A DNA stretch of 48,436 bases from Candidatus Portnoybacteria bacterium RIFCSPLOWO2_01_FULL_43_11 (GTDB lineage: Bacteria; Patescibacteriota; Minisyncoccia; Portnoybacterales; UBA2143): contig MHNE01000002.1 of the NCBI GenBank assembly GCA_001819605.1, forward strand, positions 1 through 48,436, in the 5' to 3' direction. The position numbers were made by a program, and so were the translations under genes. How positions within the stretch are numbered: position 1 is the first letter of the stretch; every line of letters begins with the position of its first letter. The notes under the pieces are model-generated. The model saw only the letters and a program-made list of their open reading frames with translations, was not told the origin of the DNA and searched no databases. Positions 9,417 through 48,436 of the stretch are shown piece by piece.

Positions 9417-11243
9417 ATGTCTGATTATCAAAAAAACATCAGAAATTTTTGCATCATTTCACATATTGATCATGGTAAATCCACATTGGCGGACCGGCTT
9501 TTGGAATTAACCGGGACTATTGAAAAAAGAAAAATGCGGGAGCAGTTTTTAGATATGATGGATTTGGAAAGGGAAAAGGGGATTACGATTAAACTTCAGC
9601 CGGTGAGGTTGGAATATAAAAAAACATTCATTCTGAATCTGATTGATACTCCGGGCCATGTTGATTTTTCCTATGAAGTTTCCCGGAGCTTGGCCGCGGT
9701 AGAAGGAGCGATTTTACTGGTTGACGCGAGTCAGGGCATTCAGGCCCAGACATTGGCTAATTTATACTTGGCTCAAGAGCAAAATTTAGTTATTATTCCG
9801 GTAATTAACAAGATTGACTTAGCGAACGCGCGAATAGAAGAAGCGGAGAAGGAAATAAAAAATATTTTAGGGCAGGGGATAGAAATTTTAAAAATTTCAG
9901 CCAAAAACGGCGAGAATATTGAACGGGTTTTAGAAGCGATTATTGAAAAAATACCGGCGCCTCAAGGCAGTTCTATCGTTCCTTTGCGGGCTTTGATTTT
10001 TGATTCTAAATACGACTCGTATAAAGGCGTTATTGCTTATGTGAGGGTTGTTGACGGTCAGATTAAAAAAGGCGAGAAAATTTTAATGATGGCTTCAGAA
10101 GCGGAGAGCGAGGTCGTAGAAGTGGGGATTTTTAATCCTGCTTTAAAGGCAACGGATATTTTAAAAACCGGAGAGATTGGATACATAGCCACGGGCTTAA
10201 AAGAGATTGAGAAGTGCAGGGTAGGGGATACCATAACAAATTCAAAATTCAAAATTCAAAATTCAAAATTTATTGAAATAGAACCATTATTGGGATACGA
10301 AGAACCTAAGCCAATGATTTTTGCGGGTTTTTATCCGATTGAAGGAGATGATTTTGATTTGTTAAAAGACGGTTTGGATAAATTAAAACTTAATGATTCT
10401 TCATTGACTTTTACCCCGCACCTTTCAAAGATAGGCGCGGAGCGCCAATTTAATAACCAATCTTTGAAAGGTGCGGGGTTTAAACTGGAATCTTCAGAAG
10501 CCCTGGGCAGGGGATTTCAGTGCGGTTTCTTGGGTCTTCTTCATTTAGAAATTATCAGCCAACGGCTTAAAAGAGAATATGACTTGAATTTAGTTATTAC
10601 CAATCCTTCAGTTTCGTACCGCCGGATTCAAGGAGAAAACTCTAAAATGGAAGAGCCGTGGGTAAAGTTGGAAATTATTACCCCAAATCAATACTTGGGT
10701 CAGGTGATGAAGCTGGCCTCGGGCTTATTAAACGGGCAATACAAAGATACTCAATATCTTAGCCCGGAAAAAGTTTTGGCGACTTATGAAGCGCCTTTGG
10801 GAGAAATTATTATAGATTTTTACGACCGCTTAAAAGGCGCGACTACCGGCTACGGTTCCATGGCCTATGAGCTGATTGATTATCGGCCGGCTGATTTGGT
10901 CAAATTGGATATTTTAATAGCCGGAGAAAAAGTGGAAGCGTTTTCTAAAATTATTCCAAAACAAAAAGCCGAGCAGGAAGGCCGGGCTTTAGTGAAAAGA
11001 CTAAAAGAAGTGATTCCGCCTCATCAGTTTAGCATTCCTATTCAGGCGGCTATTGGCGGCAAAATCATTGCCAGAGAAACGATTAGGTCTTTGAGAAAAG
11101 ACGTAATCGCCGGCTTGTACGGCGGCGATTATACGCGCAAAAGAAAACTCTTGGAAAAACAAAAAAAAGGCAAAAAAAGATTAAAGCAGTTTGGCGAAGT
11201 TTCTCTTTCTCAAGAAGTATTTTTAAAGGCCTTGAGAAGATGA
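9417..11243 (+). CDS. lepA: Translation elongation factor 4 (LepA), carrying an in-frame palindromic insertion and a heptanucleotide array
   Basis: G1-G4 GTPase motifs (HIDHGKST, DTPGH, NKID) and the LepA C-terminal signature (...IPIQAAIGGKIIARETI...LEKQKKGKKR). Confidence 0.95.
   Translation: MSDYQKNIRNFCIISHIDHGKSTLADRLLELTGTIEKRKMREQFLDMMDLEREKGITIKLQPVRLEYKKTFILNLIDTPGHVDFSYEVSRSLAAVEGAILLVDASQGIQAQTLANLYLAQEQNLVIIPVINKIDLANARIEEAEKEIKNILGQGIEILKISAKNGENIERVLEAIIEKIPAPQGSSIVPLRALIFDSKYDSYKGVIAYVRVVDGQIKKGEKILMMASEAESEVVEVGIFNPALKATDILKTGEIGYIATGLKEIEKCRVGDTITNSKFKIQNSKFIEIEPLLGYEEPKPMIFAGFYPIEGDDFDLLKDGLDKLKLNDSSLTFTPHLSKIGAERQFNNQSLKGAGFKLESSEALGRGFQCGFLGLLHLEIISQRLKREYDLNLVITNPSVSYRRIQGENSKMEEPWVKLEIITPNQYLGQVMKLASGLLNGQYKDTQYLSPEKVLATYEAPLGEIIIDFYDRLKGATTGYGSMAYELIDYRPADLVKLDILIAGEKVEAFSKIIPKQKAEQEGRALVKRLKEVIPPHQFSIPIQAAIGGKIIARETIRSLRKDVIAGLYGGDYTRKRKLLEKQKKGKKRLKQFGEVSLSQEVFLKALRR
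10238..10271. repeat. Heptanucleotide tandem array (AAAATTC, about 5 units) inside lepA
   Basis: The DNA reads caaattc aaaattc aaaattc aaaattc aaaattt and translates to NSKFKIQNSKF. Confidence 0.85.
10414..10478. mobile_element. Palindromic MITE-like element, copy 1 (CCCCGCACCT tips), in-frame in lepA
   Basis: Perfect 18-bp terminal inverted repeat CCCCGCACCTTTCAAAGA / TCTTTGAAAGGTGCGGGG. Flanked by TTTA direct repeats at 10410-10413 and 10479-10482. Element plus one repeat is 69 bp, or 23 codons. Confidence 0.8.
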
Positions 11244-16389: not shown

Positions 16390-16461
16390 GCCAGCATAGC
16401 TCAGCGGTAGAGCAACTCTTTCGTAAAGAGTAGGTCGGGGGTTCAAATCCCTCTGCTGGCT
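16390..16461 (+). tRNA. tRNA-Thr (anticodon CGU)
   Basis: Acceptor stem GCCAGCA/TGCTGGC, D arm TAGCTCAGCGGTAGAGC, anticodon stem ACTCT/AGAGT with loop TTCGTAA, T loop GGTTCAAATCC. Confidence 0.85.
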
Positions 16462-16529: not shown

Positions 16530-17540
16530 TAGTACGTTTTACCCCGAAGCGCAACACCCGCTATTTAAAAAATTAGCATAGAATACCTCTTTGGGAGTTA
16601 ACCAATTAAGGCATTTTCTCGGTCGGCCGTTAATGGTATCAATGATAGCGGATATTTCCTCGTCAGTGTAATTTTCCAAAGGTCTTTTCTTGGGAATATA
16701 TTCCCGAATAAGTTTAAACGCATTTTCAACCGCTCCTTTTTCCCAAGCGGAATAAGGATGACAGAAGAAAGTTTTAATTCCCAGTTCTTTGTATCTCGCG
16801 TTTTCCGGGCCGCTATCAAACGTTAGGGATTGGACTGGAAGAGATTGAAAAATGTCTTTGAATCCTTCCATCGCGTTCTTTAACCGAGATATTTTTTTAC
16901 TCAGAATGAATCTGGATTTCCTTTCAATAGCGGCGGCTAAAGTTTCCTTGGCCCATTTAGGATAGCCCATAGTATCGGTCTCAAAGTCGCCGTATCTCCT
17001 TCGTTCGGCAATAACCCTCGGCCTTTTATCAATAAATACGCGGTTTTTGATAATTTCTTTTGTCCGTTTAACGTTTGTCCTTTTCTTTCTTCCATATTGC
17101 TTGTATCTGAGATATCCGCGCATATCCTGACCGTATTGACCGTAAAGATATTTGTAAATGACCGTGTAGTGGACAGATTTTCCGATATCTAATTTCATTC
17201 TGCCGGCAATAGATTCCGGCGACCATGAAAGCTTAAGTTTTTTCCGAATATAATTTTCAACCTCTATATCCCTTCTAATTTTCATGCCTTGGTATTTAGA
17301 ATATTTTCTGTTCACATGCGCCTTGTGGCTGGCTTTCTTTGGATTATAGACTCCGTTAGTGGAATTGCGTTTGATCTCACGTCTTACTGAAGACGGACTT
17401 CTTAAAAGAGCATGACTAATGTCTCTTTGGGAATAGCCCTTCTTCAGTAGGATGGCGAGCTCATTTCGTTCATTCTGCGTGAAGCGTTTGTACCTCATAT
17501 ATGTTAATTATGAGGTGTTGCGCTTCAAAAGCAAATTTGT
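16530..17540 (-). mobile_element. IS30-family insertion sequence (ends approximate)
   Basis: Intact transposase flanked by the inverted repeat core GAAGCGCAACACC (16546-16558) / GGTGTTGCGCTTC (17514-17526). Sits between tRNA-Thr and the GC-rich cassette. Confidence 0.8.
16539..17498 (-). CDS. IS30-family DDE transposase
   Basis: N-terminal HTH (ERNELAILLKKGYSQRDISHALLRSPSSVRREIKRN) plus an rve-type catalytic core (FETDTM..., LTFDSGPENA..., WEKGAVEN). Confidence 0.9.
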   Translation of the reverse strand: MRYKRFTQNERNELAILLKKGYSQRDISHALLRSPSSVRREIKRNSTNGVYNPKKASHKAHVNRKYSKYQGMKIRRDIEVENYIRKKLKLSWSPESIAGRMKLDIGKSVHYTVIYKYLYGQYGQDMRGYLRYKQYGRKKRTNVKRTKEIIKNRVFIDKRPRVIAERRRYGDFETDTMGYPKWAKETLAAAIERKSRFILSKKISRLKNAMEGFKDIFQSLPVQSLTFDSGPENARYKELGIKTFFCHPYSAWEKGAVENAFKLIREYIPKKRPLENYTDEEISAIIDTINGRPRKCLNWLTPKEVFYANFLNSGCCASG

Positions 17541-18905: not shown

Positions 18906-20939
18906 ATGAAACACAAATACATTATTTTAACTTTTTTATCTATCCTTGTCTTATCGGCTAATTTTGTTTCTGTAAAAGCCGCGGAGCTTGAGGATTTGCC
19001 GGATGCCGGCCTGACGCCTCAAAGCTCTTATTATTTTCTGGACCGCTTTGGCGACTGGGTTAAATTAAATATTTTTACTTTTAACGCGGTTAGAAAAGCC
19101 GAGGTGAGAGCGGGAATCGCCGAAGAAAGACTGGCTGAATTAAACGAAGTTTCAGAGAAAACTCCGGAGCAAACGGATATTATTGAAAAATTAGAAGAGA
19201 AGATTCAGGAAATAGTTGAGAAAGTTAATAACGAAACGGAAAGTTTAGACGGAAAAAATAAAGACATTTCGCGCCTGATGGAGATTTTGAACAGTTTTTC
19301 CCTTAAAAGACACGAGGTTTTAGAAAGAGCGATGGAAAAAGCGTCGGATGAGGCAAAAGACAAAATAGAAAAGGCCTTGGAAAATGTTTATGAGCAGGCG
19401 GAAAAAAGGAGAGAGATTTTATTAAAACAAAAAGAAAAAGGATTTATTTCCGAGGAGAAAGCTCGTCTGATTATTGAGAATAACTTAACCAAACTAAAAG
19501 AGCAGCTGGAGCGCCGCAAGGAAAGAATTGAAGAGATTGAAGACGAAGCCCTAAAAGAACGGCTGGAAAATATTATTGAAAAAAAATTAGAGGCGCTGGA
19601 AAACGAAATTTTAGAACTGGAATCAAACGATAATTTAAAAGAAGTTCGGGAAAATATCAGAGAAATTAAAAAAGAGGCGATTAAATCCATTCTTCAAACC
19701 AGACAGGAACTGCGGCTTCATTCAACGACTACTGAAGAAGTTTTAGAAGAAATCCACGAAGACCGGCTTGATTTAAAAGCGCGGGTTCTTGAGATAATCA
19801 AGGAAGTTGAAGAAAAAATTTCAGCCATTGAAGAAAAAATAAATCAGCTTAAAGCAGACGGAGTTTCTGTGCCGGCGAGTGTTGATAGTTTGTTAACCAA
19901 CGGTAAAAAACATTTAGAAAACGGTAAAGCGGCTTTGGGAGAAGAAAAAATCGGTCGGGCTTTTGGTCAGGCCATGGCCGCTTTAAAAAATGTCAGAAAC
20001 GCCCAAAATATTTTAGAAAGAGTTTTAAAAGGATATAAAGAATTGCCGGAAAAAATCCTCGGGCTTAAAGAAGACTTGGCTGAAATTAAAGGGAAAATAG
20101 AATCGCTTGGTCAAGCAATACCCGAGGAAATTAAAAGATTATTTAGAGAAGCCGAAGAAGAAATCAATAAAGTGGAGAGTCTTTTAAGTGAATCTGATTT
20201 TAGAGAAGCTTGGCGGCATTTTGAAATCGCGAAAAAAATTATTAAAAAGCTTGAGCATTTTCTTGACAGATTAGAAGAAGGCGAAGAATTAATAGAAGAA
20301 ACAATTGAAAGACAAAGAGAAATTTTAAAAGACCGGCTGGAAAGGGTAAAAGACATATTAAGATTTAAGCGTCTGGATGAAAGGGAAGAGCTTATTGAGA
20401 AAATGCCGGAACCAATAAGACCAAAACAAGGAGAGGGAATTATCTGCGCTCAAGTGCTTACGCCGGCCAGAAACATCAAGACAAAAGAATGCCGCGTCTT
20501 TAAAAATTCCTGTTTAGCCGAAGGGTGGCAGAGGGATCTTGACTGTCGGGAAAAAGAAAACAACGAACTCAAAACCAGATTAGATTCTCCCGGGTCGGAG
20601 ACGACAACCGATTCTTTAAGAAATTTCAAAGGAGAAGAAGATACCCCGAGGGACGAAATGACAACAAAAACCATTGATTTGACAGCCAAACAATGGGAAT
20701 TTAGTCCTAATCCGATTAAAGTAAAAAAGGGAACGAAAGTCATACTTAACATAAAAAGCATTGACGTTAATCACGGCTTTTCTTTACCGGAGTTTAATGT
20801 AAGCATTGATTTAAAGCCGGGTAAAACGGAAAAAGCTGAATTTCTTGCTTCCAAATCAGGAAGATTTCCGTTTAAATGCAGTGTTTTTTGCGGCGCCGGC
20901 CATCAAACAATGACCGGTGCGCTTATTATTGAAGATTAA
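18906..20939 (+). CDS. Secreted coiled-coil protein with a C-terminal CuA-type cupredoxin domain
   Basis: Signal peptide, a DUF5667-like start (LPDAGLTPQSSYYFLDRFGDWV), then a region of about 450 aa rich in Glu/Lys/Leu heptads. The C-terminus carries NHGFSLPEF ... FKCSVFCGAGHQTM, matching the H...C-x3-C-x3-H-x2-M CuA ligand pattern of cytochrome oxidase subunit II. Confidence 0.75.
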   Translation: MKHKYIILTFLSILVLSANFVSVKAAELEDLPDAGLTPQSSYYFLDRFGDWVKLNIFTFNAVRKAEVRAGIAEERLAELNEVSEKTPEQTDIIEKLEEKIQEIVEKVNNETESLDGKNKDISRLMEILNSFSLKRHEVLERAMEKASDEAKDKIEKALENVYEQAEKRREILLKQKEKGFISEEKARLIIENNLTKLKEQLERRKERIEEIEDEALKERLENIIEKKLEALENEILELESNDNLKEVRENIREIKKEAIKSILQTRQELRLHSTTTEEVLEEIHEDRLDLKARVLEIIKEVEEKISAIEEKINQLKADGVSVPASVDSLLTNGKKHLENGKAALGEEKIGRAFGQAMAALKNVRNAQNILERVLKGYKELPEKILGLKEDLAEIKGKIESLGQAIPEEIKRLFREAEEEINKVESLLSESDFREAWRHFEIAKKIIKKLEHFLDRLEEGEELIEETIERQREILKDRLERVKDILRFKRLDEREELIEKMPEPIRPKQGEGIICAQVLTPARNIKTKECRVFKNSCLAEGWQRDLDCREKENNELKTRLDSPGSETTTDSLRNFKGEEDTPRDEMTTKTIDLTAKQWEFSPNPIKVKKGTKVILNIKSIDVNHGFSLPEFNVSIDLKPGKTEKAEFLASKSGRFPFKCSVFCGAGHQTMTGALIIED

Positions 20940-20957
20940 TGAAAATAAAGGGATTTT

Positions 20958-20988
20958 AAATAGGCAAGAAAAATGCCTATTTTCTTTT
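20958..20988 (+). terminator. Rho-independent terminator
   Basis: Stem AAATAGGCA / TGCCTATTT with loop AGAAAAA, followed by a TCTTTT tract. Confidence 0.6.
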
Positions 20989-21015
20989 GACCGGAAATAT
21001 GTTAAATTAAGAAGA

Positions 21016-21852
21016 ATGACCGAATTTTTTAAAAAGACTGGAGGGGGTCTTGACAATCAATACGACGGCAAAAACGCTATTTTGTCAATTTACGCCGGAG
21101 CCGGAGGAACTGACGCTCAAGACTGGGCTGAAATGCTCTTGCGAATGTATCTAAAATATGTTAAAAATAAGAATTGGCTGGCCCAAGTGCTTCAGATTCG
21201 CTCCGGCAAAGAAGCTGGGATTAAAAGCGCGACAATGGAAATAAAAGCTCCTTCCGCTTACCCCGCACCTTTTGGTGATAAAAAAGTTTTTGCGCAAAGC
21301 GCGATCCCCAAAAGGTGCGGGGCTTACGGAACTCTAAAAGGAGAATCAGGGGTTCATCGGCTGGTCAGAATTTCTCCTTTTAATTCAGCTAAACTGCGGC
21401 ACACTTCTTTTGCTTTAGTGGAAGTTTTGCCGGAAATTGAAGAAGCGGAAGCGAAAATCAGGCCGGAAGATTTAAGGATAGACACTTACCGTTCCTCGGG
21501 TCCGGGCGGACAATATGTTAACGTGACTGAAACCGCGGTTCGTTTGACTCATCTGCCAACTGGTCTTGTGGCCGCTTGTCAGTCAGAAAGACTTCAGGGC
21601 GAAAATAAAAAAAAGGCCTTAAAACTGCTTTATACCAAACTTCATAAATATCTTTCTTTACAAAAAGAAGAAGAGAGAGAAAGACTGCGGGGCGAGCATC
21701 CGTCGCCTGAATGGGGAAGCCAGATTCGTTCCTATGTGCTTCATCCTTACAAAATGGTCAAAGATCACCGAACCGGCGTTAAAGTATCCGATCCTGACAA
21801 AGTTTTAGACGGAAATTTAGATAAATTCATCAAATCAAATGATAGAATTTAA
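21016..21852 (+). CDS. prfB: Peptide chain release factor 2, lacking most of N-terminal domain 1 and carrying an in-frame palindromic insertion
   Basis: SPF tripeptide anticodon (RISPFNS), GGQ motif (SSGPGGQYVNVTETAVRLTHLPTG) and the C-terminal WGSQIRSYVLHPYKMVKDHRTG. The ATG at 21016 is preferred over the track's GTG at 20917, which would overlap the upstream gene and its terminator. Confidence 0.9.
   Translation: MTEFFKKTGGGLDNQYDGKNAILSIYAGAGGTDAQDWAEMLLRMYLKYVKNKNWLAQVLQIRSGKEAGIKSATMEIKAPSAYPAPFGDKKVFAQSAIPKRCGAYGTLKGESGVHRLVRISPFNSAKLRHTSFALVEVLPEIEEAEAKIRPEDLRIDTYRSSGPGGQYVNVTETAVRLTHLPTGLVAACQSERLQGENKKKALKLLYTKLHKYLSLQKEEERERLRGEHPSPEWGSQIRSYVLHPYKMVKDHRTGVKVSDPDKVLDGNLDKFIKSNDRI
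21261..21322. mobile_element. Palindromic MITE-like element, copy 2, in-frame in prfB
   Basis: Inverted repeat CCCCGCACCTTTTGG / CCAAAAGGTGCGGGG (18 of 19 matches when extended). CTTA direct repeats at 21257-21260 and 21323-21326. Element plus one repeat is 66 bp, or 22 codons. Confidence 0.8.
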
Positions 21853-38905: not shown

Positions 38906-40490
<1,585 letters not shown>

Positions 40491-40686
40491 AATTTGTTTT
40501 TAAACAAATTTGGGGTGTCGATTAGAGTTGAAAATTGAGAATTCTATTTTCAATTCTAGGGTGTTGGCCGAAAAGCCCTAAATATCGGCTAAAACGGGAC
40601 AACTGCACAAAACTGTAATAAAACAAAAAATCACAACTTGCTTTAGTTGTGATTTTTTGTTAATGTGAAAATATAAAAAGTTATAC

Positions 40687-40760
40687 GCGCGTGTAGCTCA
40701 GCTGGTTAGAGCGCGTCTCTGATAAAGACGAGGTCCTTGGTTCGAGTCCAAGCACGCGCA
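40687..40760 (+). tRNA. tRNA-Ile (anticodon GAU)
   Basis: Acceptor stem GCGCGTG/CACGCGC, D arm TAGCTCAGCTGGTTAGAGC, anticodon stem CGTCT/AGACG with loop CTGATAA, T loop GGTTCGAGTCC. Confidence 0.9.
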
Positions 40761-40768
40761 CAAAACTT

Positions 40769-40798
40769 ATCCACAGGTCATCTGTGGATTTTTGTGTT
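40769..40798 (+). terminator. Terminator-like hairpin after tRNA-Ile
   Basis: Stem ATCCACAG / CTGTGGAT with loop GTCAT, followed by TTTTGTGTT. Confidence 0.55.
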
Positions 40799-40842
40799 AA
40801 AATATGATTACCGTATTTTATTATAGGAAGGGGGTGAAATAA

Positions 40843-41529
40843 ATGTTTACTATTCCAACTTGGGGAGAAGTTATTACAGATTCCCTTCAGACTCTTTGGA
40901 TGGGATTTATCGGGTTTTTGCCTAATCTTTTAGGCGCTCTTATTGTCTTTATTATTGGCTGGATTATTTCAGCGGCTTTGGGCAAATTGGCGGCTCAAGT
41001 TATCAATATCCTGCGAATTGACCAGATTTTGGAAAAAATAGGATTTAAAAACGCTTTAGACAGAGCCGGGCTTAAGTTGAATTCCGGTAAATTTATCGGC
41101 GAACTGATTAAATGGTTTTTGATTATCGTGTTTCTAATGGCGGCCGTTGATATTCTCGGTTTAGATCAAGTGACGGAATTTCTTAAACGAGTCCTCTTTT
41201 ATATTCCTCAAATTATTGTGGCGGTTTTGATTCTTTTGGCGGCTGTTATGGTGGCTAATTTCCTGCAGAAGTTGGTAAAGGCGAGCGTGGAAGCGGCAGA
41301 CCTCCAGTCGGCAAATTTTTTAGGCGTCGTTACTAAATGGGCTGTTTTGGTTTTCGCGATTTTAGCGGCCCTTCTCCAGCTTGGTATTGCTCCTGGTCTG
41401 ATTCAGACGCTTTTTATGGGACTCGTCGGCGCTTTGGCCTTGGGCGCCGGTTTGGCTTTTGGTTTGGGCGGCAAGGATTTAGCGAGTCAGCTTTTAACTA
41501 AAATAAAGAACGAAATTTCAGGAAAGTAA
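40843..41529 (+). CDS. Membrane protein with repeated TM helices (conserved-TM-helix / MscS N-terminal-like), embedded in the rRNA locus
   Basis: SD GGAAGGGGGTG ahead of the ATG. Five to six hydrophobic helices and a Gly/Ala-rich tail (LVGALALGAGLAFGLGGKDLA). Confidence 0.65.
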   Translation: MFTIPTWGEVITDSLQTLWMGFIGFLPNLLGALIVFIIGWIISAALGKLAAQVINILRIDQILEKIGFKNALDRAGLKLNSGKFIGELIKWFLIIVFLMAAVDILGLDQVTEFLKRVLFYIPQIIVAVLILLAAVMVANFLQKLVKASVEAADLQSANFLGVVTKWAVLVFAILAALLQLGIAPGLIQTLFMGLVGALALGAGLAFGLGGKDLASQLLTKIKNEISGK

Positions 41530-41536
41530 TACGGGG

Positions 41537-41565
41537 TTGACAATGATTTTCAAAGCGAATATACT
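41537..41565 (+). promoter_or_regulatory. Candidate promoter upstream of 23S (TTGACA-N17-TATACT)
   Basis: TTGACA at 41537-41542 and TATACT at 41560-41565. Confidence 0.55.
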
Positions 41566-41675
41566 AATAATATAGTTGAAGATATTTTAGTCTTCAATAA
41601 AATCAATGAAGAAAACAGAAAGACTATTTAATAAAGGAAGCGGTTAAAAGCTGTAAGTTTATTTGTGTCGTTTTG

Positions 41676-41704
41676 AAAAAGACCGCTTCTCTCGCGGTCT
41701 TTTT
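41676..41704 (+). terminator. Terminator-like hairpin between the 41537 promoter and the nested palindrome
   Basis: Stem AAAAAGACCGC / GCGGTCTTTTT with a 7-nt loop and a T run. Confidence 0.5.
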
Positions 41705-41708
41705 GTAA

Positions 41709-41976
41709 GGGAACAGGATTAGAAATAGAATCAGCTTGAGAAGCCAAAAAATGGATGATTTCAAGGCGCGACGACGAAAATTGTACCTAAAAGGTACATT
41801 GAGGAGGAGCAACGAAGAAATCAGCCATTTTTTGGCTTCCCTTCAGGCGGGCGAATTCGGGCAAGCTTCTTTGTTGCTCGTCGCTCACGTACTTTTCAAG
41901 TACGCATCGCTCCTCGCGCCTTGAATCTTACCCGAATTCGCTCCGCTCAATTGATTTTATTTCTAATCCTGTTCCC
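41709..41976. repeat. Nested palindromic element of about 270 bp directly upstream of 23S
   Basis: Outer 19-bp perfect inverted repeat GGGAACAGGATTAGAAATA / TATTTCTAATCCTGTTCCC. Inside are two large hairpins whose cores are inverted copies of the same unit of about 60 nt. Confidence 0.75.
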
Positions 41977-41978
41977 TA

Positions 41979-41990
41979 GCTCTTTAAAAA
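41979..41990 (+). promoter_or_regulatory. boxA-like antitermination motif (GCTCTTTAAAAA)
   Basis: Resembles the rrn boxA consensus TGCTCTTTAACAA. Lies about 35 nt upstream of the 23S 5-prime stem. Confidence 0.5.
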
Positions 41991-42736
41991 CTTAACATCC
42001 GTCGTATTAATTACTAACCGGATGCGGGATAAATATTAAGGGCTTATGAAGGATGCCTTGACATAAAGAGCCGATGAAGGACGTGGCGTGACTGCGATAA
42101 GCCTCGGGGAGGTGTCTAGCAACCTTTGATCCGGGGATGTCCGAATGGGGAAACCCAGCGCAACTCAAACTGCGTTACGCGCCGTTTTCGCTGCTAAATT
42201 TAAAATTTAAAATTAAAAGTTATGGTATAAATTTTTTAATTTTTCACTTTTCACTTTTAATTTAGCGTCGTAAGCGGCGCGAGGGAACCCGCCGAAGTGA
42301 AACATCTCAGTAAGCGGAGGAAAAGAAAAAAATCGCGAAGCAATTTTTTCAGCCACTAGTGACTAATTAATAGTTGATAGTGGTTGGGAATTTTGCTTCG
42401 CAAAATTCCCCAAGTAGCGGCGAGCGAAAAGGGAAGAGCCTAAACCGTTGCTTCGCAACGGGGTTGCAAGGTAATAATGTTTTGGAGCTGAATACATAAA
42501 TTTTATGTATTTAGTTTCAAAAGGAGTTTATAAAATAAAGATTGGTTAGTTGAATCTTTTTGGAAAAAAGAACCAAAGAGGGTAATAGTCCCGTAGATGA
42601 AAACTTCTTTATACTCCTAATTATTATTCTTAAGTACCATGGGACCAGACTATCCCATGGGAAGCCGGCAGTCCTACTATGTCCGCCAAAGCATTAGCGG
42701 AGGCGGACTCTGCCAAGGCTAAATACTCTTTATGAT

Positions 42737-42773
<37 letters not shown>

Positions 42774-44826
42774 CAGCCCGTTGAGGGCGGTGAAATAGAA
42801 CCTGAAATCATAAGCCTACAAGGACTCGGAGCTCTGACATTATGTCGGAGTGACGGGGTGCCTTTTGCAGAATGAGCCAACGAGTGTATATGGGCGGCTT
42901 TGTTTAAGTTCGTCATAGAACGGAAACACAGTGAAAGCAAGGGTTAACAGCCCGCTTTTGTCGCCTACATACGACCCGAAGCCAAAGCGAGCTAACCATG
43001 ACCAGGATGAATCCGCCGTAACTGGCGGAGGAGGTCCGAACCCACTAGCCGTGCAACACTAGGGGATGAGTTGTGGTTAGAAGTGAAAAGCTAATCGAGC
43101 TTGGTAATAGCTGGTTCTCCCCGAAATATCTTTAGGGATAGCCTCAAACTAAAAGTCCGGAGGTAGAGCACTGAATGGTTTGACATGACTTTTGTCTAGT
43201 CTGACCAATCAAACTCCGAATGCCGGGCCAAATAGGTTTGGGAGTCAGACTGTGGGGGCTAAGCTCCATAGTCGAGAAGGAAACAGCCCAGATTGTCGTC
43301 TAAGGTCCCTAAGTTAAGTTCAGTGGTAAAGGAAGTGAAGTTTCTCTAACATCTAGGAGGTTGGCTTAGAAGCAGCCATCCTTTAAAGAGTGCGTAACAG
43401 CTCACTAGTCTAGAGACTCTGCGCCGAAGATTTAACGGGGCTAAACTTAACACCGAAGACACAGATGCCGATGCTTCGCATCGGCGTGGTAGGGGAGCGT
43501 TTCATATTCAGCGAAGCTATTTTGTAAGAAATAGTGGAGAGTATGGAAGTGAGAATGTTGGCATAAGTAACCGCAATTCCGGTGAGATATCGGAACGCCG
43601 AAAGCCTAAGGTTTCCTTGGCAATGTATATCAGCCAAGGGTTAGGCGGGCCTAAGCGCAGCGCAGTTTTTAGCTGTGTGAGCGCGATGGACAGCCGGTTA
43701 ATATTCCGGCCCCCCAATGTTTTTTCAAAAAGGTGACGGAGTTTAGTAGTTTGGGTGAGTTATTGGATTCTCATTGCTTATCTAAGATTTTTCAAGGATA
43801 AGCAGAATGTCTTGCTTTGGCAAGGCAGACCCAAATGAGCAAGCTTCCAAGAAAAGCCTTTGCGAGCTAAAAATGCTGGGTCCGTACCGAAAACCGACAC
43901 AGGTGGGCAGGGCGAGTAGCCCAAGGCGAACGGGTGATTCCTCGTGAAGGAATTCGGCAAAACAGCAGGCGTAACTTCGGAATAAGCCTCACCCTGATGA
44001 TGAATCAGGGTTTCAATAAAAGACTCCTGGCGACTGTTTACCAAAAACACAGGTCCCTGCTAACTCCAAAAGAGGATGTATAGGGGCTGACGCCTGACCA
44101 GTGCTAGAAGGTTAAACCGGACGGTCTTTGTTAGTTTTAAACTAATGATTGCCTGAAGGCCAAGCCCTAGTAAACGTCAGCAATAACTATAATTGTTCTA
44201 AGGTAGCGAAATTCCTTGGCATCTAATTAGTGTCCCGCACGAATGGCGTCACGACTGGGAGACTGTCTCCACGAGGAGCCCGGTGAAAATGCAGTGGGGG
44301 TGAAGATGCCCCCTTCCTGCGGCAAGACGGAAAGACCCTAGAAGCTTTACTATAGCTTGGTATTGAGTTTTGGTTTTGGATGCGTAGCATAGAGGGGAGG
44401 CTTTGAAGTTTGCCTTTCGGGGCAAATGGAGCCGTCAGTGAAATACCCTTCTTTCAAAATCTTAACCCTAATCCGCCAAAAAGCGGTGACAGTGCCAGGC
44501 GGGTAGTTTTAGTGGGGCGCTAGCCTCCTAAAAGGTAACGGAGGCGTTTATAAGGTCGGCTAAGCCCGGATGGAAATCGGGCTGGTCGTGTAAAGGCAGA
44601 AGCCGGCTTTACTGCAAGGCGGACATGCCGCGCAGTTGCGAAAGCAGAACTTAGTGATCCGCTGGTAGGTTGTAGAACCGCCAAAGCTCATCGGCCAAAA
44701 GCTACTCTAGGGATAACAGGCTAATAGGTCCCAAGAGTCCATATCGACGGACCTGTTTGGCACCTCGATGTCGGCTCACCACATCCCGGGGGTGAAGAAG
44801 CTCCCAAGGGTTTGGCTGTTCGCCAA

Positions 44827-45574
<748 letters not shown>

Positions 45575-45910
45575 GAGACAGGTTGGTCCCTATCTGCCGC
45601 AGGCGTTGATACTTGAGGGAAGTCTTTCTTAGTACGAGAGGACCGGAAAGAACAGACCTCTGGTCTGCCAGTTGGCCCGCTCGGGCCATAGCTGGGTAGC
45701 TATGTCTGGCGAGGATAAGCGCTGAAAGCATATAAGCGCGAAGCCTTCCCTAAGATTAGGTATCGTAGATTCGTGGAAGATGACCACGTAAATAGGCTGC
45801 AGGTGTAAGCTTAGTAATAAGTTTAGCCGAGCAGTACTAATCAATCATAATCTATCCCGTATCTGGTTAGTAATTAACAATAATATCTCCGCGCTTTTTG
45901 CGTTTAAATA

Positions 45911-46017
45911 TGGGGATTATACCGAGAATGCTCCACCTGTTCCCATTCCGAACACAGAAGTGAAATTTCTCAAGGCCGATGATAGTGGGTTTTTCCCGCG
46001 AAAGTAGGTCGTCCCCG
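45911..46017 (+). rRNA. 5S rRNA
   Basis: TGGGGATTATACCGAGAATGCTCCACCTGTTCCCATTCCGAACACAGAAGTGAAA...GTAGGTCGTCCCC, with the conserved CCGAACAC and AGTAGGTC blocks. Confidence 0.9.
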
Positions 46018-46080
46018 TTTTTAAGCTCAAAAAGCCGAGAGGATGGACAGAATAGTTTTCAATCATTTGACCCGATGGGT

Positions 46081-48295: not shown

Positions 48296-48367
48296 AGTTT
48301 ACGATGTTATTTATTAATGTTTTGTAATCTTACTTATATTTTAGCTTTTATAAATAAAGCATGTCAA

Positions 48368-48430
48368 CCCCGCACCTATTAAGGATAACTAAATTACTTA
48401 TAATAATATTAATCCTTAATAGGTGCGGGG
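48368..48430. mobile_element. Palindromic MITE-like element, copy 3
   Basis: Perfect 18-bp inverted repeat CCCCGCACCTATTAAGGA / TCCTTAATAGGTGCGGGG. TCAA direct repeats at 48364-48367 and 48431-48434. Confidence 0.75.
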
Positions 48431-48436
48431 TCAATA

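Follow-up and report, generated by a model that had tools for sequence, protein, structure and literature searches.

How did a palindromic DNA segment come to lie in frame within the gene for release factor 2 (RF2), and what has become of the gene which carries it? This question is raised by prfB of Candidatus Portnoybacteria bacterium RIFCSPLOWO2_01_FULL_43_11, an uncultured ultra-small bacterium of which a stretch of 48,436 nt on contig MHNE01000002.1 (GCA_001819605.1), hereafter called the window, has been analyzed. It is very probable that a hairpin element resembling MITEs (transposable elements of the miniature inverted-repeat type) inserted in prfB with the frame kept, that RF2 remained functional and that the insertion became fixed in the population.

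Anatomy of the Insertion in prfB

The element covers 62 bp (21261..21322), begins with CCCCGCACCTTTTGGTGAT and finishes with ATCCCCAAAAGGTGCGGGG. Its arms (21261-21279 and 21304-21322) are 19 nt each and pair with one mismatch, the outermost 10 bp being perfect. They enclose a loop (21280-21303) which contains a mini-hairpin, GCGC-AAA-GCGC (21292..21302), adjoining the right arm on the plus strand and marking the orientation of the element. On either side stands the tetranucleotide CTTA (21257..21260 and 21323..21326), recognized as a target-site duplication from the sequence and from comparison with an empty site. The original prediction had placed a 62-bp palindrome with its CTTA/CTTA borders and its mini-hairpin at exactly these positions, and this proved correct. 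So did its reading of the element plus one repeat as 66 bp or 22 open codons: within the open reading frame (ORF) of prfB (20917/21016..21852), these 66 nt add the 22 residues PAPFGDKKVFAQSAIPKRCGAY to RF2.

It had further been proposed that removal of the insert restores a gapless RF2 just upstream of the SPF motif, and alignments with RF2 structures from the PDB bear this out. They split exactly at the insert, query residues A103-Y104-G105 corresponding to positions 188-190 of the E. coli protein and SPF to positions 205-207, and without the insert the protein reads ...IKAPSAYGTLKGESGVHRL... and is collinear with its counterparts from E. coli, T. thermophilus and B. subtilis. Comparison with the 119 best RF2 homologues showed that the insert columns are empty in all of them; none of these orthologues carries the inserted residues, with or without a palindrome. 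The closest relative, P0002, shares 86% amino acid identity over the aligned residues, and a clean, intact empty site, GCTTATGG, is present in the nearest relative (locus L236). The filled site of the window, TCC GCT TAC[62 bp]CTTAC GGA, thereby faces TCT GCT TAT GGG in P0002, and the blastn gap between the two DNA sequences is exactly 66 nt.

In the proposed mechanism, a non-autonomous cut-and-paste element would have entered CTTA within the Ala-Tyr codons of prfB and duplicated these four bases. Through the duplication, identical Ala-Tyr codons (GCT TAC) flank the hairpin, which begins at the base following the first pair. Folding of the mRNA was also predicted, and the element forms a strong, stable hairpin in silico (-36.9 kcal/mol, z = -6.65), matched in stability by none of 200 shuffled sequences; the opposite strand folds equally well.

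A Large Family of Dispersed Elements

A search of the window with the 15-mer arm, allowing up to three mismatches, returned 7 matches, compared to 1.08 +/- 0.97 in shuffled sequences (0/100 shuffles reached 7). The repeats of the window are therefore not a product of chance. The seven matches make up three complete elements, and a relaxed search uncovered no further or decayed copies in the window. The sister copy is a 65-bp element (10414-10478) within lepA which, together with its TTTA/TTTA repeats, occupies 10410..10482 and adds 23 residues in frame; these residues are missing from the Aquifex LepA structure 2ywe. Judging by where each loop holds its mini-hairpin, the prfB and lepA copies lie in opposite orientations. 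They are also read in different codon phases, TAC CCC GCA CCT in prfB and ACC CCG CAC CTT in lepA, as had been noticed at the outset, and the accompanying claim that the palindrome is kept while the peptide is not likewise stands, with PAPF...KRCG encoded in prfB and PHL...KGAG in lepA. The third copy is a 63-bp element (48368-48430) with TCAA/TCAA repeats (48364..48434), located after an ftsW-like ORF and in no ORF of 90 or more amino acids; once restored, its target reads TGTCAA, which is TTGACA on the opposite strand.

Pattern searching placed these three copies within a large family spread over public genomes and metagenomes. The exact pattern CCCCGCACCT-N30-60-AGGTGCGGGG occurs at at least 119 loci in species-representative genomes, where about 17 matches would be expected by chance according to our own arithmetic, and a stricter pattern at at least 116 loci in metagenomes. 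Some of the high-GC matches (Streptomyces and others) are probably due to chance. Among 214 distinct copies from the listed loci, 113 have a perfect 4-bp flanking repeat, for which the chance expectation is 1/256, and the oriented duplication follows the consensus T-N-A-A, with G/A before it. Across the family, the elements measure 51-85 bp, have no ORF of their own and share invariant 10-bp termini, CCCCGCACCT/AGGTGCGGGG.

Copies with a duplication are found in Omnitrophota, Planctomycetia, Acidobacteria, Nitrospira, proteobacterial bins and many Patescibacteria, namely Saccharibacteria, Portnoybacteria, Falkowbacteria, Staskawiczbacteria, Doudnabacteria and Tagabacteria. These assignments follow the labels deposited with the metagenome-assembled genomes (MAGs), in which bin contamination is possible. 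For each of the three window copies, the closest relative comes from a single Portnoybacteria MAG (L086, L099 and L070), where the site it occupies is non-homologous. MAGs rich in copies include GenBank JACQTF01, JAPLLY01 and MHMZ01. The prfB copy differs from that of L086 (3965-4026, reverse complement) by three bases, two of which constitute a compensated change from a C-G to a T-A pair. Near-identical elements are flanked by different 4-mers, as shown by CTTA in prfB versus TTTA in L086 and by TAAA, TTTA, TATA and TTCA within one subfamily. As these differing 4-mers match on both sides of each copy, a real staggered-cut duplication is favored over a tetranucleotide carried by the element.

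Based on these sequence features, the prfB/lepA repeat is best classed as a MITE-like non-autonomous transposable element, because it is small, has terminal inverted repeats, a duplication and an empty site, and exists as many dispersed copies. The family is large and apparently undescribed: no description of it was found in the literature searched, in which matches to its end sequences were CRISPR repeats and primers. Rfam, searched with the window at gathering thresholds, gave no match for the element, and at E <= 10 the element returned just generic hairpin (miRNA) noise.

Several particularities of the subfamilies were also observed. In the related loci (L120-L235), 33/35 restored TTGA-class sites read TTGAC and 18/35 TTGACA, the sigma-70 -35 hexamer. 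The restored TTCA/TGAA-class sites, mostly from Omnitrophota, read TTCAT in 17 of 22 cases, that is ATGAA on the other strand, a start-codon-like context. Inside the Omnitrophota-type elements (L004, L007, L046 and others), the right end recurs in degenerate form with TGAA after it (for instance ...GGCGTGGGGTGAA...GAAGGTGCGGGG TGAA); it looks as though one element had landed in another's duplicated target, giving a composite that later spread. In addition, a Doudnabacteria contig (L105, 1098-4004) carries several copies of an apparent sister family with ends CCCAGCCCCAGTTTT, whose flanking repeat is again TTTA.

Genic Copies and the Open-Frame Filter

After removal of each element with one repeat, the restored sites were checked for a long open frame. 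Long ORFs were obtained at 11 of 113 sites, so that about 10% of the copies are genic and about 90% intergenic. Three of these 11 sites are weak, with flanks of 70-111 codons, and "broken". The eight clear genic copies, by contrast with these, are without exception multiples of 3 and stop-free (8/8). For seven, the host can be named (RF2, LepA, ArgRS, LeuRS, UvrA, PGK and a GHMP kinase). The host of the eighth, in L086, is an ORF without a name or a Pfam match whose product resembles a membrane protein. The eight copies are read in three phases, PAPF...KRCG five times, PHL...KGAG twice and PRTF...KVRG once, and in both orientations; therefore no peptide is conserved. The open-frame filter, taken with the strong depletion from coding sequences, is the outcome expected if selection acted on random insertions. 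A further in-frame copy was noted in a type IV pilin-like protein (L097, 3515-4060), right after the N-terminal GFT of the prepilin motif, where the repeat duplicates GFT: MKQRGFT[PHLLRGNKEINFKHIRKGAGFT]IVEIIVVV.

The open-frame filter also speaks for translation of the inserts and against their being skipped. In prfB, the ribosome would read straight through the 66 nt, which contain no stop in the phase used, and the insert is thus likely translated and the resulting loop tolerated. A different outcome can be conceived, in which normal RF2 would be made, either by a ribosomal hop between the two copies of GCU-UAC, comparable to phage T4 gene 60 or the mitochondrial byps, or by removal of the RNA segment, and it draws on the duplicated GCT TAC codons bordering a very stable hairpin which starts right after the first pair. 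We regard this as very improbable. The take-off codon is not followed by a stop, the insert being open; neither skipping nor excision would need all eight clear genic copies to be stop-free multiples of 3; and no Rfam family, introns and ribozymes included, matches the insert. The two outcomes would differ in their junction peptides, read-through producing APSAYPAPFGDK and CGAYGTLK, and bypass SAYGTLK.

Integrity and Fixation of the RF2 Gene

The host gene, prfB (21016..21852, plus strand), encodes a short form of RF2 without domain 1 and is identified by the Pfam domains PCRF and RF-1 and by matches to RF2 structures in the PDB (E = 4e-74). Its ORF extends over 20917..21852, with ATG 21016 as the likely start. 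The SPF codons (21373..21381, plus strand), which specify the stop-codon recognition tripeptide, are intact 16 codons downstream of the insert, and this tripeptide is invariant in the 119 homologues. The GGQ codons (21505..21513, plus strand) of the peptidyl-tRNA hydrolysis motif are intact as well, as are more than 50 invariant columns of the RF2 alignment. The gene order prfB-ftsE-ftsX, with ftsE and ftsX downstream, is a conserved context. Compared to the P0002 gene, the ratio of nonsynonymous to synonymous substitution rates (dN/dS) is 0.13 (dS = 0.59), and the gene is under purifying selection. Furthermore, 9 of the 31 long ORFs of the window end with TGA; RF2 activity is therefore required.

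Six loci, read from separate assemblies (L237, L238 and L241-L244), show no difference from the window in the element or in either CTTA repeat. Five protein variants, differing in length or by one residue, are on record in about 26 contigs from ENA, NCBI, JGI and Logan, all with the insert, and no same-species allele without it was present among the matches from a 5.8-billion-protein database. The ENA assemblies with the allele include ERZ4903055, ERZ4903137 and ERZ27254754. The insertion is fixed in this population. Among the six assemblies, a single prfB polymorphism was seen, T/G at 21365, a Val-to-Gly replacement within the conserved HRLVR strand that two ENA assemblies (L237 and L238) share.

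A decaying pseudogene or an assembly artefact might be suspected from a foreign 66-nt insert within a conserved domain and from a gene shorter than the textbook RF2. Such a reading is highly improbable. The frame is open, the motifs and invariant columns stand under a low dN/dS while TGA stops are in use, the short form is common to most close relatives, and the element recurs unchanged in six independently assembled loci, the protein being deposited in four separate resources. Given this dN/dS, intact motifs and synteny, the recurrent allele and the use of TGA, prfB is read as a working gene carrying a passenger; nothing pseudogene-like was found in it, the allele being the one in every assembly seen.

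In order to place the insert on the protein, RF2 was modeled with AlphaFold2. A first model built from 15 sequences was too poor (predicted local distance difference test, pLDDT, 58.9) and was replaced by one built from 120 sequences, with a mean pLDDT of 78.5 and a pTM of 0.78, which superposes on free RF2 (1gqe) with a TMq of 0.76. The RF2 fold is predicted to be retained and the insert to be a low-confidence coil: residues 82-97 have a pLDDT <50 and are situated between a strand (69-77) and a helix (103-110). Just upstream, local variability is highest at positions 77-80 (1.7-3.1 bits), where a deletion is seen in two homologues. Downstream, the segment AYGxLKxExGVHR is near-invariant, and its AY is regenerated by the duplication. 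RF2 would hence gain a 22-residue loop, probably disordered, 16 residues upstream of SPF, between a strand ending in a naturally variable turn and this regenerated segment. We infer that the insert lies where the strand running toward the SPF loop ends, in a permissive turn on the protein surface and away from the codon-reading tip, this last placement being based on known RF2 structures and not on a measured distance. The protein would stay functional, which would have allowed the insertion to become fixed in this population.

The gene is also peculiar in its 5' part. The N-terminal domain 1 is missing, the start being about 110 residues "late", and so is the +1 frameshift site, with no in-frame TGA; 76 nt (spacer 20940-21015) separate prfB from the upstream cupredoxin-domain gene. 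Most close RF2 relatives are also short, at about 245-260 amino acids, while some Portnoybacteria-type homologues reach about 340 amino acids with a domain-1-like extension. No description of this short form in the Candidate Phyla Radiation (CPR) was found in the literature searched. The sequence GGAGGGGGTCTTGAC near the prfB start was considered as a relic of the frameshift site, which it resembles, and was attributed to chance, being not conserved in the nearest relative.

This loss bears on whether the insertion has been co-opted, the predicted mRNA hairpin or the domain-2 loop regulating the synthesis or function of RF2, for instance as a translational pause or an mRNA-stability element that possibly replaces the lost +1-frameshift autoregulation. 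An effect of the predicted hairpin on RF2 translation or mRNA stability is plausible. The strength of this hairpin, whose stem is still almost perfect, the presence of the insert allele in all assemblies seen, the absence of both the in-frame TGA frameshift site and domain 1, and a copy in a second ribosome-associated gene, lepA, 11 kb away, would all agree with such a role. Co-option nevertheless appears quite improbable and has nothing specific in its favor. The insert is limited to one species-level population and 119/119 relatives do without it; the genic copies of the family, in unrelated housekeeping genes, three phases and both orientations, correspond to filtered random insertion; neither a slippery site nor a U-tract is found beside the hairpin; and in a near-clonal population, with 0-1 single-nucleotide polymorphism in prfB, a perfect stem may just mean youth. 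A reading of the element as a terminator or frameshift stimulator was also rejected, with no U-tract and no slippery heptamer present and no terminator there in the scan. With the insert considered as a passenger, the predicted mRNA hairpin of -37 kcal/mol would represent at most a mild cost.

Mobilization of the Element

The insertion was likely made by a DDE-type transposase acting in trans. A parent element was searched for in about 240 loci, each at most 21 kb long (most 8 kb or less), by looking for end pairs 150-5000 bp apart with matching duplications and up to three mismatches, and for solo ends, and by clustering ORFs of at least 220 amino acids. End pairs 0.7-3.5 kb apart enclose ordinary genes, and the search otherwise gave two-MITE pairs and a few serine recombinases. 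A phage vector was discarded, just 2 matches being found in 2.9 million viral contigs.

Variation within the arms provides additional information on how the element may move. Arm positions 11-19 vary yet stay complementary (0.758 versus 0.454 +/- 0.016 in 2000 shuffles). Positions 11-16 are fully paired in 34/99 elements, and 23 different perfectly paired hexamers occur among those 34. In 48 loop-similar pairs, 22 compensated double changes were counted, for which we estimate a chance level of about one, alongside 29 one-sided changes. Either the two ends have evolved together to suit a single protein, or the hairpin as such is required. As for the loop, its small hairpin is very often GCGAAGC/GCTTCGC and otherwise GCGC-NNN-GCGC (e.g. 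L122, L132, L149 and L220). The oligonucleotide d(GCGAAGC) forms an exceptionally stable DNA triloop mini-hairpin, and loops of this type might point to a single-stranded DNA stage.

These properties invite another explanation, in which the element is moved by an enzyme specific for single-stranded or hairpin structures, whether of the HUH/Y1 type as in IS200/IS605, of the REP-RAYT type or other, the flanking 4-mers then representing a cleavage or target tetranucleotide and not a staggered-cut duplication. The entire element forms one hairpin, the inner arms covary above chance, the loops are often of the stable triloop type, the sites are subfamily-specific (TTGAC in 33/35 and TTCAT in 17/22 cases) and a DDE partner was not found in the loci searched, all of which would suit such an enzyme. 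What makes this explanation unlikely is that near-identical copies have different 4-mers matched on both sides (CTTA, TTTA, TATA, TTCA), which is awkward for an element-borne site, and that REP elements, which produce no duplication, are marked by a fixed GTAG/CGTC tag (PMC3733652). In addition, no Y1 or RAYT gene was noticed, though ORFs of fewer than 220 amino acids were not screened.

Several points weigh against the insertion of a cut-and-paste element into a gene that remained functional. First, no autonomous copy or transposase bounded by the family ends is present in the approximately 240 loci, which leaves the mobilizing enzyme, and with it the DDE mechanism, putative. The window has an insertion sequence (IS) of its own, from the IS30 family and 981 bp in length (16546-17526), with 28-nt imperfect inverted repeats starting GAAGCGCAACACC and a transposase ORF on the minus strand (17498..16542; NCBIfam NF033563, E = 4e-58); it was rejected as the partner, its ends being unrelated to the hairpin element. 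Second, the covariation of the inner arms goes beyond independent decay and is not required by plain transposase-bound terminal inverted repeats. Third, the prfB target, CTTA (TAAG on the other strand), is off the TNAA consensus of the family. Fourth, translation through the insert has been deduced from a single line of evidence, the open-frame bias. Finally, a 48-kb window leaves room for a second, uninterrupted prfB elsewhere in the genome.

A broader proposal combines many of these observations. These hairpins would form an unrecognised, pan-phylum mobile class which spreads through a hairpin or cruciform and a structure-specific enzyme and homes to TTGACA-like -35 boxes and ATGAA starts, the in-frame copies being translated or occasionally hopped and giving essential proteins (RF2, LepA and aminoacyl-tRNA synthetases) new surface loops in genome-reduced bacteria. 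We mention it as a doubtful, speculative extension.

Comparison With Known Systems

The closest parallel is provided by the Rickettsia palindromic elements (RPEs), which Ogata et al. reportedly described in 2000 as lying in frame within unrelated housekeeping genes, where they add a peptide without destroying the protein. Like the element studied here, RPEs are palindromic and hairpin-forming, exist in many copies per genome and have a subset of in-frame copies in housekeeping genes (PMC10969869). However, RPEs are about 100-150 bp long, are found in Rickettsia alone and encode a conserved peptide per family, and the present element differs on all three counts. With its 51-85 bp, sharp 10-bp ends, 4-bp duplication, three phases and occurrence in several phyla, it is set apart from the RPEs as described. 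Its in-frame behavior thus appears to parallel that of RPEs by analogy, while the defining RPE features (size, conserved peptide and host) are not shared.

Known bacterial MITEs such as Correia/NEMIS, ERIC/IRU, RUP and Nezha are similarly small, non-coding and dispersed, with terminal inverted repeats, a duplication and a long hairpin, and are presumed to be mobilized in trans. These are confined to one genus or family, often have a known IS and usually generate a TA duplication. The present element has other ends, a TNAA 4-bp duplication and no parent IS found, and the same 10-bp termini occur in Patescibacteria, Omnitrophota, Planctomycetota, Acidobacteriota and others, according to the deposited labels. 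Repetitive extragenic palindromes (REPs) and BIMEs, associated with RAYT transposases, resemble it by their GC-rich stem-loops, covarying stems and a mobility that is probably structure-dependent. REPs measure 20-40 bp, are extragenic and possess a fixed GTAG or CGTC tag without duplication (PMC3733652), whereas this element has no tag, is longer, has a duplication and includes genic copies. Elements of the IS200/IS605 (HUH) type use a fixed tetranucleotide without true duplication; here, the 4-mers differ between near-identical copies and match on both sides, which favors a true duplication.

Among transposase families, IS701 generates a target duplication of exactly 4 bp and has a broad phylogenetic spread (PMC2266710), the 4-bp duplication being shared by the present element. 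The IS701 end consensus, ---YACT-Y--YR, is out of register with CCCCGCACCT, and according to its source paper this consensus does not cover the whole family (PMC2266710). In the loci examined, none of the copies was seen to adjoin a transposase of the IS701 type. Finally, bypass elements (T4 gene 60 and mitochondrial byps) also consist of a short coding insert with identical flanking codons and a hairpin at the take-off site. They have a stop after take-off and need not keep the frame, whereas the clear genic copies studied here all keep it and are open, a sign of ordinary read-through and not of bypass.

Significance and Other Features of the Window

The kind of phenomenon described here is known, being RPE-like, while the host group is new and the family is apparently undescribed and unusually widespread. 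Selfish DNA within coding genes, known mainly from Rickettsia, also operates in CPR bacteria, where it reaches core translation factors (RF2 and LepA) and aminoacyl-tRNA synthetases. Through such copies, nature has put to the test which loops of a protein can accommodate 20-25 additional residues. The identical 10-bp ends, the stems that covary and the 4-bp TNAA duplication shared across several phyla, in the absence of a known transposase, point to a horizontally mobile transposition system. Since one subfamily prefers TTGACA-like sites, promoters may also be affected. For the annotation of MAGs, a caveat is that such inserts lengthen proteins and may pass for lineage-specific domains.

Two further features of the window are of a different nature. 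The IS30-family element adjoins a tRNA gene (16390-16461). In the rRNA operon (38906-46020), the 23S rRNA gene (matched by Rfam at 42028-44968) has a LAGLIDADG homing-endonuclease ORF (44961-45455) at its 3' end.

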